Part shown: piece by piece, positions 2,293-33,450 of the stretch
Numbering within the stretch: the first letter of the stretch is position 1
Layout of the letters: each line of letters begins with the position of its first letter
NCBI GenBank assembly: GCA_900552105.1
Contig: URYH01000002.1
Coordinates: 10,652-74,651 of the forward strand
Direction: 5' to 3'
Length of the DNA stretch: 64,000 nt
Source: an uncultured Eubacteriales bacterium
Lineage (GTDB): Bacteria; Bacillota; Clostridia; Christensenellales; UBA1242
The notes under the pieces: model-generated
Database searches by the model: none
What the model was told of the DNA's origin: nothing
What the model saw: only the letters and a program-made list of their open reading frames with translations
Position numbers and translations under genes: made by a program

Positions 2293-2536
2293 TTTCTCTC
2301 CTTAAAAAAAATTGTTTCACCCAACTTTAGGGCGAAACTTTCGCGATACCACCTAAATTCGTGCAAAAGCACCTCATTCATGTTATTACGGAACAACCGC
2401 CGTTCCCTACTAATTTCAGGACGGAGCTAGAAAGTGAATTCAGCAAACTTGTCTTTAACAACCTTTCAGCCCACGAGTTGTTTTCTCTTTCAAGCCAGTT
2501 TTTGCATACTAGTCTTTCATTATCGCCTTTATCAAT
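2293..2536 (-). promoter_or_regulatory. T-box leader (Phe specifier UUC) with terminator/antiterminator, controlling pheST
   Basis: The minus strand carries the T-box sequence AATTTAGGTGGTATCGCG (rc of 2342-2359). Upstream are an AGAGA bulge and a TGGGC distal-loop motif, and a specifier-like GAATTCAC (UUC followed by A). The terminator is GTTTCGCCC-N6-GGGTGAAAC plus U8, just before the RBS. A putative promoter reads TTGACA (2566-2571) -17- TAAATT (2543-2548). Confidence 0.8.
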
Positions 2537-11753: not shown

Positions 11754-11772
11754 TACTTAATGTATTTTCTTT

Positions 11773-12059
11773 ACAAAAAAACACCCTTTCGGGTGTGTTC
11801 TTTTGGTGGACTCCAACGAACGTTGTTTACAACACGAGAATCCCTCCCGTCCACCGTACAAAAAAACACCCTTTCGGGTGTGTTCTTTTGGTGGACTTCC
11901 CAGAACGTGTTTACAACACGAGAATCCACCCCCGTCCACTATACAAAAAAAACACCCTTTCGGGTGTGTTCTTTTGGTGGACTACTCAGAACGTGTTTAC
12001 AACACGAGAATCCTTCCCCGTCCACTATACAAAAAAACACCCTTTCGGGTGTGTTCTTT
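11773..12059 (-). repeat. tandem array with an 85/86/85-bp period: four copies of the tRNA-Tyr trailer/terminator interleaved with three 51-nt tRNA-Tyr-derived foldback units
   Basis: The block ACAAAAAAA(A)CACCCTTTCGGGTGTGTTCTTTTGGTGGAC occurs four times, with TGGTGGAC starting at 11804, 11889, 11975 and 12060. The foldback units are at 11804-11854, 11889-11939 and 11975-12025 (minus strand). Each reads GTGGACGGGG..GGATTC, then CGTG-TTGTAAA-CACG, then GTCCACCA. Confidence 0.9.
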
Positions 12060-12144
12060 TGGTGGACGGGGATGGATTCGAACCATCGAAGGCAGTGCCG
12101 GCAGATTTACAGTCTGATCCCTTTGGCCGCTCGGGAACCCGTCC
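12060..12144 (-). tRNA. tRNA-Tyr(GTA), class II long variable arm, CCA encoded
   Basis: GGACGGGTTCCCGAGCGGCCAAAGGGATCAGACTGTAAATCTGCCGGCACTGCCTTCGATGGTTCGAATCCATCCCCGTCCACCA. The acceptor stem is GGACGGG/CCCGTCC, the anticodon loop is CTGTAAA, and the T-loop is TTCGAAT. Confidence 0.95.
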
Positions 12145-12219: not shown

Positions 12220-12310
12220 ATATTTTGGGCGCCTCGAGCGAAACAAATGTTTCAGTCTGTCGCCTATTTTTGTCTCGCCACTTGCGTGTCGGCGAATTAA
12301 CCTTACGGCT

Positions 12311-12394
12311 TGGTGCCTTGGGGCGGAATCGAACCACCGACTTCCGTGAGATTTTGCAATCTCGTGTCGGTGCTTCTTTTTTCACACCTAAGAC
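12311..12394 (-). pseudogene. tRNA-like pseudogene: a copy of the tRNA-Phe 3' 31 nt fused to a GCA (Cys)-type hairpin
   Basis: 12311-12341 is identical to 12396-12426, the tRNA-Phe T-arm, acceptor 3' strand and CCA. Upstream is GAGAT-TGCAAA-ATCTC (a 6/8-nt loop, not the canonical 7) flanked by CACCGAC/GTCGGTG. The 5' segment GTCTTAG can pair 6/7 with CCAAGGC, but there is no canonical D-arm. Confidence 0.6.
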
Positions 12395-12395
12395 T

Positions 12396-12471
<76 letters not shown>

Positions 12472-12572: not shown

Positions 12573-12639
12573 AAACGGTTTGCCGTATCTTATGAACTCT
12601 CACTCGCCCAGAAAATCCCAAGCCAAGTGAAAAATCCAA

Positions 12640-12797: not shown

Positions 12798-12814
12798 ACG
12801 GATACGACTATTTG

Positions 12815-12843
12815 ATAATATAATAAAATTGATTTGATGTCAA
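12815..12843 (-). promoter_or_regulatory. sigma-A-type promoter of the minus-strand tRNA cluster
   Basis: The minus strand reads TTGACA (12838-12843) -17 nt- TATTAT (12815-12820), about 18 nt upstream of the tRNA-Pro 5' end. Confidence 0.6.
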
Positions 12844-12940
12844 CAATTATTTCAAATTTTTTCAACTTTTTTTATTAGTTGTTTTATTGTTAAATTTTCC
12901 TTCATCTTACAAATAAAAATCATCACATAATTGAAATTTG

Positions 12941-12969
12941 TTTACAAAGTTTGTAGATTGTGTTAACAT
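12941..12969 (+). promoter_or_regulatory. putative promoter of tRNA-Gly
   Basis: TTTACA (12941-12946) -17- TAACAT (12964-12969) with an extended -10 TG at 12961-12962. It lies about 10 nt upstream of the tRNA 5' end. Confidence 0.45.
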
Positions 12970-12978
12970 AATAAGCAT

Positions 12979-13052
12979 GCAGGTGTAGTTTAGTGGCAAA
13001 ACATCAGCTTCCCAAGCTGTGGTTGCGGGTTCGATTCCCGCCACTTGCTCCA
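12979..13052 (+). tRNA. tRNA-Gly(CCC), CCA encoded
   Basis: GCAGGTGTAGTTTAGTGGCAAAACATCAGCTTCCCAAGCTGTGGTTGCGGGTTCGATTCCCGCCACTTGCTCCA. The acceptor stem is GCAGGTG/CACTTGC and the anticodon loop is TTCCCAA. Confidence 0.93.
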
Positions 13053-13074
13053 AAAGACCTTTCGGTCTTTTTTT
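13053..13074 (+). terminator. intrinsic terminator after tRNA-Gly
   Basis: AGACC-TTTC-GGTCT followed by T6. Confidence 0.7.
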
Positions 13075-13235
13075 GTGGCGGCAATCTCGCAGACTTCGTC
13101 TTGCCAAGCTTTTTGCTTGTGACCCCGCAACACATTGCGGCTTGGCGCCCGTCTCTGCGGGTGCGTCAGCGGAGTCTTCTCTCCGTTCCGACTGCGTTTC
13201 CCGCCACTTGCTCCAAAAGACCGAATGGTCTTTTT
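13075..13235 (+). other. GC-rich 123-nt hairpin-rich insert followed by a second copy of the tRNA-Gly 3' end and terminator
   Basis: 13198-13222 (TTCCCGCCACTTGCTCCAAAAGACC) is identical to 13035-13059, and the terminator stem is repeated with a different loop. The insert (13075-13197) starts with GTGGCGGCAATC, which is the rc of the tRNA T-arm/acceptor region GATTCCCGCCAC with one mismatch. It holds five consecutive 4-6 bp hairpins and is far more GC-rich than its surroundings. Confidence 0.8.
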
Positions 13236-13295
13236 ATTAAAAAACCCTGAATGCAATCCAAGGTTTTCAATAACAATAAAAAAGTTAAGTTCTGT

Positions 13296-13718
13296 TTAAA
13301 CCGAAATCCAAATGAGAATCAACGCTGCCGTGCAAACAAAAATTGCAATGTCGATGCAAAGGCAAGTTATGCTTGCAACTCTAATGTTTTTGATACAAGA
13401 CTTGATGCTCAACGACAACAAAACAACAGATGTGATGAAAAATGCCAACATTGGCAACAAAATAACTGGAAAAATTGATATCAAAACCAAAAGTGCAACG
13501 GCGACAGCAATTCCCTGCTCTGGTGTTGTTGCAGAATTTGCAATGTCTGTTATAACACTTTTAAAGCAACATGTGACAACAAACATAGCAATAACAAGCA
13601 CAAAGAACACAATGCCCGCAATAAACACACCTTTCTTTGTCAACTTTTTATTTTGCAAGTCAGACGACACATTGACATCATCTCTAATTTTGTTTTCCGT
13701 TTCATTTATTTCTTCCAT
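13296..13718 (-). CDS. hypothetical membrane protein (140 aa, about 3 TM)
   Basis: An acidic N-terminus is followed by hydrophobic segments. I recognise no family. Confidence 0.5.
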   Translation of the reverse strand: MEEINETENKIRDDVNVSSDLQNKKLTKKGVFIAGIVFFVLVIAMFVVTCCFKSVITDIANSATTPEQGIAVAVALLVLISIFPVILLPMLAFFITSVVLLSLSIKSCIKNIRVASITCLCIDIAIFVCTAALILIWISV

Positions 13719-15114: not shown

Positions 15115-15169
15115 TTTTTCTCCTTTCGATTTGACAAATCATCAAAATTTGTTTATTATATTGTCGTTT

Positions 15170-15245
15170 GCTTGTGTGGCTCAGTCGGTAGAGCAGTTGA
15201 TTCGTAATCAACAGGTCGGCGGTTCGATCCCGCCCACAAGCTCCA
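15170..15245 (+). tRNA. tRNA-Thr(CGT)
   Basis: GCTTGTGTGGCTCAGTCGGTAGAGCAGTTGATTCGTAATCAACAGGTCGGCGGTTCGATCCCGCCCACAAGCTCCA. The anticodon loop is TTCGTAA. Confidence 0.93.
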
Positions 15246-15276
15246 AAAGCACAATATCTTGTGCTTTTATTTTTTA
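15246..15276 (+). terminator. intrinsic terminator after tRNA-Thr(CGT)
   Basis: AAGCACA-N6-TGTGCTT followed by a T-rich run. It overlaps the 3' end of the convergent ORF at 15267-15758. Confidence 0.65.
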
Positions 15277-33421: not shown

Positions 33422-33450
33422 ATTATAACATAAGAAAAAGAATAATGCAA
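33422..33450 (-). promoter_or_regulatory. sigma-A-type promoter of the large ncRNA
   Basis: The minus strand reads TTGCAT (33445-33450) -17- TGtTATAAT, with the -10 hexamer at 33422-33427. The predicted start falls at or next to the GTGGAGA closing-helix strand. Confidence 0.6.

Follow-up and report, generated by a model that had tools for sequence, protein, structure and literature searches.

A hairpin-rich repeat unit of RtT-like anatomy in the tRNA-Gly trailer of a gut Clostridia species

Why should the end of a tRNA gene be found twice, with a short GC-rich sequence in between? This question is raised by the trailer of tRNA-Gly(CCC) in a stretch of 64,000 nt from an uncultured Eubacteriales bacterium (the window hereafter), in which the tRNA 3' end and the start of its terminator recur downstream of a 123-nt, hairpin-dense insert. 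A first inspection of the letters (the sequence-only reading) had considered a deleted-down attachment (att) scar of an integrase, a small structured RNA made by read-through of the first terminator, or the same kind of foldback repeat as seen at a nearby tRNA-Tyr. Our findings now show that the feature is real and well delimited, and that it is neither an integrase scar nor a mobile element. Most likely, it represents non-essential duplication debris that has the architecture of the RtT repeats of Escherichia coli.

The parent gene, tRNA-Gly(CCC), occupies positions 12979-13052 of the forward strand according to ARAGORN and Rfam (66.3 bits), and its last 18 nt (13035-13052) form the first copy of the direct repeat. 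The 25-mer TTCCCGCCACTTGCTCCAAAAGACC, composed of these final 18 nt and the terminator start, has exactly two exact occurrences in the 64-kb window, at 13035 and 13198, and over a longer span of 51 nt (13022-13072 against 13185-13235) the repeat is still 82% identical. The whole unit that follows the tRNA and its terminator measures 163 nt and consists of a 12-nt inverted copy of the T-arm and acceptor, GC-rich hairpins over about 110 nt, the 18-nt tRNA 3' end in exact copy and a second terminator, all on the forward strand. Terminator T1 (AAAAGACC-TTTC-GGTCTTTT plus T-run; 13052-13074) lies inside the repeated segment and has a weak hairpin of -8.1 kcal/mol. The inverted copy of T-loop, T-stem 3' strand and acceptor start lies at 13075-13086, where GTGGCGGCAATC agrees with the reverse complement of GATTCCCGCCAC at all positions but one; a diverged strain has an inverted copy that is perfect over 11 nt (AGTGGCGGGAA). 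Next come the GC-rich remainder of the interior (13087-13197), with four or five hairpins and collinear remnants of the tRNA-Gly body, the exact copy of the last 18 nt including CCA (13198-13215) and terminator T2 (13215-13235; -8.2 kcal/mol). Taken as a whole, the 123-nt interior (13075-13197), sited between the two terminator-linked repeat copies, has a G+C content of 61%, compared to 20% in the upstream spacer, 33% in the downstream DNA and 37.5% in the window, of which no other part contains it. Chance is ruled out as a source of the repeat, the inverted copy, the G+C contrast and the fold, and inverted copies are individually significant (p <= 0.002) in the window-type Gly unit and in the tRNA-Phe (Phe-1) and tRNA-Tyr units described below. 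The anatomical claims of the sequence-only reading thus stand: the exact recurrence, the steep rise in G+C, the insert start as reverse complement of the T-arm/acceptor segment with one mismatch, the second terminator with the same stem and a different loop, and the five hairpins it named, all of which are present in the sequence.

T2 has the stem of T1 and the loop GAAT, which is almost the reverse complement of the T1 loop TTTC. T1 and T2 are thus complementary to one another at 95%, and the loop is flipped. Across copies and strains (including L136/L137), the loop is seen in both orientations, TTTC on the one hand and GAAT, GAAA or GAAG on the other, and this difference is a hairpin-loop flip.

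How stable is such a unit in a population? We collected 26 loci covering the tRNA-Gly trailer by exact-protein look-ups of neighbouring genes and by one metagenome pattern scan, all of them from human-gut metagenomes and metagenome-assembled genomes of the same Clostridia species complex. The unit is absent from L088, L089, L127 and L093, and present once in the window, L002, L090, L099, L104, L133, L134, L136 and L137. At least two copies are found in L001, L085, L087, L126 and L131, exactly three in L129 and at least three in L128; a truncated form occupies L086, L091, L092, L094 and L115, and a scaffolding gap blurs the count in L132. Runs of N lie inside the Gly, Phe or Tyr arrays of L001, L085, L087, L128 and L132, and since the repeats break short-read assemblies, copy numbers in these five loci are lower bounds. 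Gly units are gained or lost whole (0-3 copies) with exact junctions. Locus L090 corresponds to an empty site plus exactly one 163-nt unit, bounded by a perfect 40-nt repeat that runs from the T-loop through the end of the T-run. Chimeric units (u11, u12) combine a young body with an old, decayed distal repeat, and in the empty site of L127 the proximal loop type is found next to the distal flank, two outcomes that recombination between the repeats would be expected to give. In several strains the distal 3' copy has decayed, to CTTCCCTCTCAC. The units of L136/L137 are about 14% diverged from the window type and start with TTTAGTGGC, identical to tRNA positions 11-19. In the truncated form, the interior breaks off after its first ~100 nt and gives way to 95 nt of unrelated AT-rich sequence, and the 3' copy is missing.

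If the insert had come from elsewhere, then its source or a larger version of it might be found. None of the 26 loci (0/26) holds a larger or integrase-bearing element between the repeats, so that the comparison of close relatives proposed by the sequence-only reading yielded the empty sites it had called for and no full-size island. Its judgement that 123 nt is far too small for a mobile element was upheld, and the match to a mobile element that it had proposed to look for by BLASTN was not obtained: the interior is without a blastn match in 50,697 phage and 72,556 plasmid records and without a match in 2.9 million viral contigs, where two pattern hits are chance. The scan for a known RNA family likewise returned nothing for the insert, neither at the Rfam gathering threshold nor at E <= 10. 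A partial Rfam match to permuted tmRNA (17.9 bits) is meaningless and due to the T-arm. The metagenome scan, which used the tRNA-Gly 3' end, N15-45 and GTGGCGG as its pattern, gave 20 hits, of which two are true (L104, L115), both downstream of the same tRNA-Gly; the other 18 are chance matches in GC-rich coding DNA. As far as this pattern scan can tell, there is no conservation beyond the species, that is, away from its tRNA-Gly. A scan of representative genomes made with the neighbouring SDR protein, not with the unit, returned only paralogues of at most 47% identity, and a comparison set of 100 unrelated loci contained only 5 tRNAs. Literature searches brought up nothing about such repeats apart from brief mentions of rttR.

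Does the Gly unit stand alone? On the reverse strand, tRNA-Phe (12396-12471) is followed by an 85-nt unit (12311-12395), in which a 12-nt inverted tRNA copy (CACCGACACGAG) is combined with a hairpin and with 31 nt identical to the tRNA-Phe 3' end. Downstream of tRNA-Tyr (12060-12144, reverse strand) lie three tandem units of 85 or 86 nt (11804-12059; individually 12059-11975, 11974-11889 and 11888-11804) and the last terminator of the array (11772-11803). This array has a period of 85 with 3.5 copies at 93%; each unit contains a terminator, 18 nt of the tRNA-Tyr 3' end in inverted orientation, a hairpin resembling the Tyr anticodon arm and GTCCACCA, and the repeat takes in only 8 nt of the tRNA. 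Tyr and Phe units share the inverted copy, the hairpins and the exact 3' copy with the Gly unit, which thus exemplifies a pattern of the locus. This common layout bears out the assignment of the Gly unit to the foldback repeats at tRNA-Tyr. Altogether, four tRNAs of one operon (Gly, Met, Phe and Tyr) carry units, the sequences of which differ between tRNAs; pairwise alignment of the interiors across unit types found no significant similarity for the Gly unit. Strain variation is again extensive: Tyr units occur in 0-5 copies, a 78-nt tRNA-Met unit in 0, 1 or 2, and the tRNA-Phe trailer is either empty (L092), or holds the 85-nt unit, an unrelated 130-nt unit (Phe-2; L087-L089, L091) or a third short form. 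The same Pro-Met-Asp-Phe-Thr-Tyr operon in a sister species (SpoIIAA 78% identical) has plain AT-rich spacers and no units. We also considered that the Tyr units might be minimal tRNAs with a live anticodon arm, and rejected this idea, because their GTA loop is not conserved between units.

From a more distant perspective, the layout recalls the tyrT operon of E. coli, which reportedly contains 178-bp repeats, each with the last 19 nt of tRNA-Tyr, that are the source of RtT RNA. RtT has been an enterobacterial curiosity since the late 1970s, and we know of no function that has been established for it. In the K-12 locus, which we fetched for comparison (RtT is Rfam RF00391, gene rttR, gathering threshold 45 bits), each unit and the tyrT-tyrV spacer contain GGGGAAGGAT, an inverted copy of ATCCTTCCCC, followed by about 90 nt of GC-rich hairpins and by AATCCTTCCCCCACCACCA. 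In the Rfam consensus the inverted copy pairs with the tRNA 3' copy (GgGaaGGAU/AUCCuuCcC) and leaves a 9-nt tail, CCACCACCA, free. Gly unit and RtT each follow immediately after a tRNA gene and share its strand, both end in the exact last 18-19 nt of the tRNA including CCA (AATCCTTCCCCCACCACCA in E. coli, 13198-13215 at tRNA-Gly), and both carry the inverted T-stem/acceptor 3' strand about 100 nt upstream of that copy, with a GC-rich hairpin interior and in tandem units. The predicted closing helix with a free NCCA tail would be another shared trait (8 nt in the Gly unit, 9 nt in RtT). Sequence or covariance-model similarity is missing, however: the RtT model, which as a positive control gave four matches of 133-137 bits in E. 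coli K-12, has no match in window positions 12800-13400 nor in L085, L087, L088 or L091, even at E <= 10, and the interiors of Gly unit and RtT compare at a pairwise z < 0.5. The two systems further belong to different phyla and different tRNAs, Gly units each carry their own intrinsic terminator and vary down to zero copies, and four tRNAs of one operon are affected in the Clostridia species. With a shared layout, no model match and unrelated interiors, the Gly unit is RtT-like in anatomy and stands outside the RtT family.

Would the unit give rise to a structured RNA? RNA of positions 13070-13240 is predicted to fold at -68.5 kcal/mol (z = -4.8), and none of 200 dinucleotide shuffles folds as well. 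In this minimum-free-energy fold, the unit is closed by a 7-bp helix (GUGGCGG/CCGCCAC), for which the inverted copy supplies the 5' strand and positions 13200-13206 the other, so that the proposed pairing of the insert's 5' end with the downstream CCGCCAC is borne out in the prediction. The first 7-9 nt of the 3' copy are predicted to pair with the inverted copy and the last 8 nt, UUGCUCCA, to be single-stranded. Three unit variants have fold z-scores of -4.8 (window type), -3.7 (diverged type u13) and -2.0 (the remaining one); the closing helix with a free tail is predicted in the window type and in u13, and was not obtained for u8, the third variant that was folded. If the whole region were transcribed by read-through, the inverted copy could even pair with the genuine tRNA 3' strand. 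As for transcription, a consensus scan detected promoter-like sites only at 12931-12969, upstream of tRNA-Gly. A TTTACA-17-TAACAT pattern with TG extension at 12941-12969 (forward strand; a pattern match only) is the sole candidate promoter for tRNA-Gly and the unit alike. The same scan found no promoter of the unit's own, for which there is no room, because the unit begins directly after the T-run of T1. The T1 and T2 hairpins are weak when compared to the Tyr terminator (-12.2 kcal/mol), and read-through of T1 is therefore plausible.

Signs of selection on this fold are weak and ambiguous. We recovered 14 distinct unit sequences and ran the covariation analysis on alignments of 10, then 12 variants; none of the predicted pairs had changed on both sides (0/33, 0/44 and 0/45), with low divergence limiting the power of these counts. 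Several variants carry single-nucleotide polymorphisms (SNPs) that break predicted stems. Roughly 9 of 13 variable sites fall in loops or at unpaired positions (10 variants, first alignment), and one hairpin still pairs after a register shift in the diverged type.

Where might the interior have come from? We removed the 18-nt copy and tested the remainder for collinear similarity to the 8 tRNAs of the window and against dinucleotide shuffles. The cognate tRNA ranks first of eight for the Gly interior (p ~0.005), with z = 2.8 for the window type and z = 2.9 for the diverged L136/L137 type. The matching blocks correspond to the D-loop, the anticodon loop/stem (CCCAAGCT, which the diverged type matches perfectly), the T-stem 5' strand and the T-loop, with CCAAGCT (anticodon loop/stem), TGCGGGT (T-stem 5' strand) and GTTCCGA (T-loop) as recognisable remnants. 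The Met unit likewise resembles its own tRNA (p = 0.0125) and keeps CTCATAAC and D-arm remnants, and for the Tyr unit its own tRNA ranks first (p = 0.03). In the E. coli RtT unit, similarity to tRNA-Tyr was not significant by the same test (p = 0.18).

The Gly insert is probably the body of a decayed, hairpin-rich partial tandem duplicate of the tRNA-Gly gene and its terminator. The repeated module, some 40 nt that begin in the tRNA's T-loop and close with the terminator T-run, flanks the 123-nt interior, in which collinear traces of the tRNA body survive. Such modules would allow whole units of 163 nt to be added or removed by unequal homologous recombination or by slippage, and strains would therefore differ between 0 and 3 of them. 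Recombination or gene conversion probably keeps the 3' module identical to its parent. The TTTAGTGGC start of the L136/L137 units would fit a duplication junction at which the terminator T-run met the TTT of the D-arm. The long imperfect palindrome at tRNA-Tyr and tRNA-Gly suggests a strand switch at the terminator hairpin, and palindrome-stimulated breakage could drive the instability in copy number. Probably, the unit is transcribed only when RNA polymerase passes the weak T1, and the read-through RNA would then fold into a closed multi-hairpin domain, in which the pseudo 3' end is masked at its start by pairing with the inverted copy while 8 nt ending in CCA stay free, as in the design of E. 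coli RtT. Such a history would place the unit near tandem tRNA duplicates and pseudogenes, of which the tRNA-Pro/His repeats of Photobacterium phosphoreum are said to be an example, and with which it shares local duplication in a tRNA operon, decay and copy change by unequal crossing-over. It differs from them in being partial and remodelled to hairpins, in its inverted 3' strand and in retaining identity only at the 3' end.

Several observations sit uneasily with a plain duplication. The similarity of the Gly interior to the tRNA is modest and confined to short blocks, its alignment needs some 65 nt of insertions into a 74-nt gene, and the two tRNA-Phe units show no significant similarity to the tRNA-Phe body in the same test. 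Identity drops abruptly from 100% in the 3' 18 nt to weak similarity upstream, which is unlike simple decay; this step at the T-loop needs gene conversion or some other process. Tandem duplication also leaves the inverted copy unexplained, and the five loci with the truncated form are a further difficulty. Finally, units at four tRNAs of one lineage, compared to a sister species without any, hint at a process peculiar to that lineage.

Which alternatives, then, deserve consideration? An att scar, or miniature remnant, would have formed if a tRNA-targeting element had integrated at the T-loop of tRNA-Gly, brought the 3' copy along and then shrunk by deletion to 123 nt. The T-loop, in which the direct repeat starts, is the classic sublocation of tRNA-targeting integrases, the distal repeat decays as a displaced attR would, and the same species hosts an integrase-bearing element by the neighbouring tRNA-Thr(CGT) in L001/L095. 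Unlike attL/attR pairs, however, the Gly loci are free of integrase and cargo, the repeat covers the whole terminator and its T-run (and, at tRNA-Tyr, only 8 nt of tRNA), the units stand in near-identical tandem, and the interior resembles tRNA-Gly and has no counterpart in phage, plasmid or viral collections. This origin is very improbable. A functional RtT-like small RNA (sRNA) fares somewhat better, yet we consider it unlikely as well. Here, the unit would be retained for the sake of its read-through transcript, from which processing would release a stable RNA about 140 nt long; its free NCCA end would resemble that of a tRNA, and the RNA might act as a mimic or decoy of the uncharged tRNA 3' end towards RNase P, the CCA-adding enzyme, the stringent-response or T-box machinery, or tRNA-targeting toxins. 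The folds of the window type and u13 (z = -4.8 and -3.7 against shuffles), a G+C content at the level of tRNAs in a 37.5% genome, the agreement with the RtT consensus, the bias of variation to unpaired sites (about 9/13 among 10 variants) and the hairpin that survives a register shift all speak for it. It would resemble the sRNA 3'ETS-leuZ, which reportedly derives from a tRNA 3' external transcribed spacer upstream of the operon terminator and base-pairs with sRNAs, in that it would come from the trailer of a tRNA transcript without its own promoter; the Gly unit differs by lying beyond a terminator and having no known target. Against such an RNA stand 0 of 44-45 pairs with compensatory change, the stem-breaking SNPs, four loci without a unit, five truncated ones and none in the sister species, the missing promoter, the decay of the distal 3' copy in several strains, and the circumstance that RtT itself is not known to have a function. 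Of the earlier proposal of a small structured RNA, it is thus the route by T1 read-through that stood, as the only way in which an RNA could be made, while the lack of covariation, stem-breaking SNPs and unit-less strains spoke against the rest. A cellular function of the Gly unit is unlikely.

The inverted copies are more readily accommodated if a dedicated, lineage-specific process acts on tRNA 3' ends and repeatedly makes modules of inverted copy, spacer and direct 3' copy, for instance by strand-switch or snap-back synthesis at the terminator hairpin, by hairpin-stimulated break repair, or by a reverse-transcriptase or recombinase activity. True inverted copies of 9-18 nt of the tRNA 3' half are present in the Gly, Met, both Phe and Tyr units and in E. 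coli RtT. They hold T-loop bases in the inverted sense, so the tRNA's own 5' strands, and hence a direct tRNA remnant, cannot account for them. At tRNA-Tyr and tRNA-Gly they prolong the terminator hairpin to a long imperfect palindrome; the 3' copy starts at T-loop position 58/59 in three unit types; and the confinement to four tRNAs of one lineage would follow. Yet no enzyme candidate was found in the locus, the Met and Phe units have no terminator next to them, the 3' copy differs in length between units (8, 18, 19, 25 or 31 nt), and ordinary duplication plus recombination explains the copy-number dynamics; a dedicated process is improbable. Partial tandem duplication of tRNA-Gly and its terminator, with subsequent decay, remains our favoured account of the unit.

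The surroundings of the units provide further observations. The native 67-nt spacer between tRNA-Met and tRNA-Asp (12573-12639, reverse strand) contains GGATTT...CACTTGGCTTGG and TTCATAAG, the latter comparable to CTCATAAC of the anticodon loop; by eye, it looks like an older, more decayed tRNA-Met-like remnant, and the 5' part of the 78-nt Met unit of other strains resembles it, again by eye. In the 130-nt Phe-2 unit, a T-arm copy (GGTTCG and ATTCC) is split by a 38-nt insert, whose motifs CCGAGCGAAGCGA and GAGGAGCATAGCGAC are similar to TCGAGCGAAAGCGA and GAGGAGCGAAGCGAC, which the E. coli K-12 tyrT-tyrV spacer (L103) has at the corresponding site. The GCGAAGC mini-hairpin motif is common to both; local alignment of the Phe-2 unit with this spacer gave z = 3.5, which is not significant after multiple testing. 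In L086, L091, L092, L093 and L129, Tyr units are absent, and a gene for a 122-aa desulfoferrodoxin (with an in-frame stop in L092) and a different terminator lie between tRNA-Tyr and spoIIAA. A conventional integrative element is found at a neighbouring tRNA in one strain (L001:1544-3106 and L095:307-1869): it encodes a tyrosine integrase (372 aa) and an HTH/CI-like repressor beside a cytidylate-kinase-like gene, at a site corresponding to window positions ~15115-15270, where tRNA-Thr(CGT) sits.

Close to tRNA-Gly itself, L093 (which has no Gly unit) carries at 697-1601 an element of ~850 bp, bounded by terminal inverted repeats (GTGTGTTGTAAGAAAAGTCTT ... AAGACTTTTGGTTGTAACACAC), which separates the tRNA exactly after its CCA end from its terminator, so the 3' boundary of tRNA-Gly is also hit by a true insertion element. 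Its 122-aa ORF, for which Pfam gave no match, occurs also in L131:3799-4167. The small membrane protein beside tRNA-Gly, for which Pfam found nothing (140 aa; 13296-13718, reverse strand), has alleles of 140 aa and of 148-150 aa (L089:1290-1742), and the 140-aa and 150-aa alleles are only 49% identical despite identical SpoIIAB in both loci. A 12/13 match to the tRNA-Gly 3' end (TCTCGCCACTTGC, 12273-12285, forward strand) in the tRNA-Phe/tRNA-Thr spacer is probably fortuitous, other haplotypes differing there. Haplotype diversity thus has a hot spot in the tRNA-flanking region as a whole.

From its spoIIAA-spoIIAB-sigF operon and an OLE (ornate large extremophilic) RNA, the organism is recognised as a spore-former of the Clostridia. 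The OLE RNA is full-length (32849-33427, reverse strand; 392.5 bits) and shows that the organism is an anaerobic Firmicute. A T-box leader (2325-2532, reverse strand; 95.9 bits against a gathering score of 93) lies upstream of a 339-aa ORF (1273-2292).

What does the unit tell us about tRNA trailers? A practical consequence is that such units break or gap metagenome assemblies at the locus. The unit also provides a caution: direct repeats of tRNA 3' ends are not always integrase footprints, and at this locus they mark local, recombination-driven repeats of tRNA trailers. Its interest rests less on the insert itself than on the parallel to RtT and on natural variation. The E. coli tyrT/RtT repeats hereby obtain a first non-homologous counterpart, and natural presence/absence and copy-number variation at four tRNAs of one operon make the origin of the units, and the role of an RNA with an NCCA tail, testable with comparative and metatranscriptomic data. 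It is conceivable, if improbable, that a recurrent process, or selection for mimics of tRNA 3' ends, builds modules of inverted copy, hairpins and 3' copy independently in distant bacteria. If so, these modules would be an unrecognised class of tRNA-linked elements or RNAs and not random duplication debris, a class that would span four tRNAs of a gut Clostridia species and the unexplained tyrT/RtT repeats of enterobacteria.

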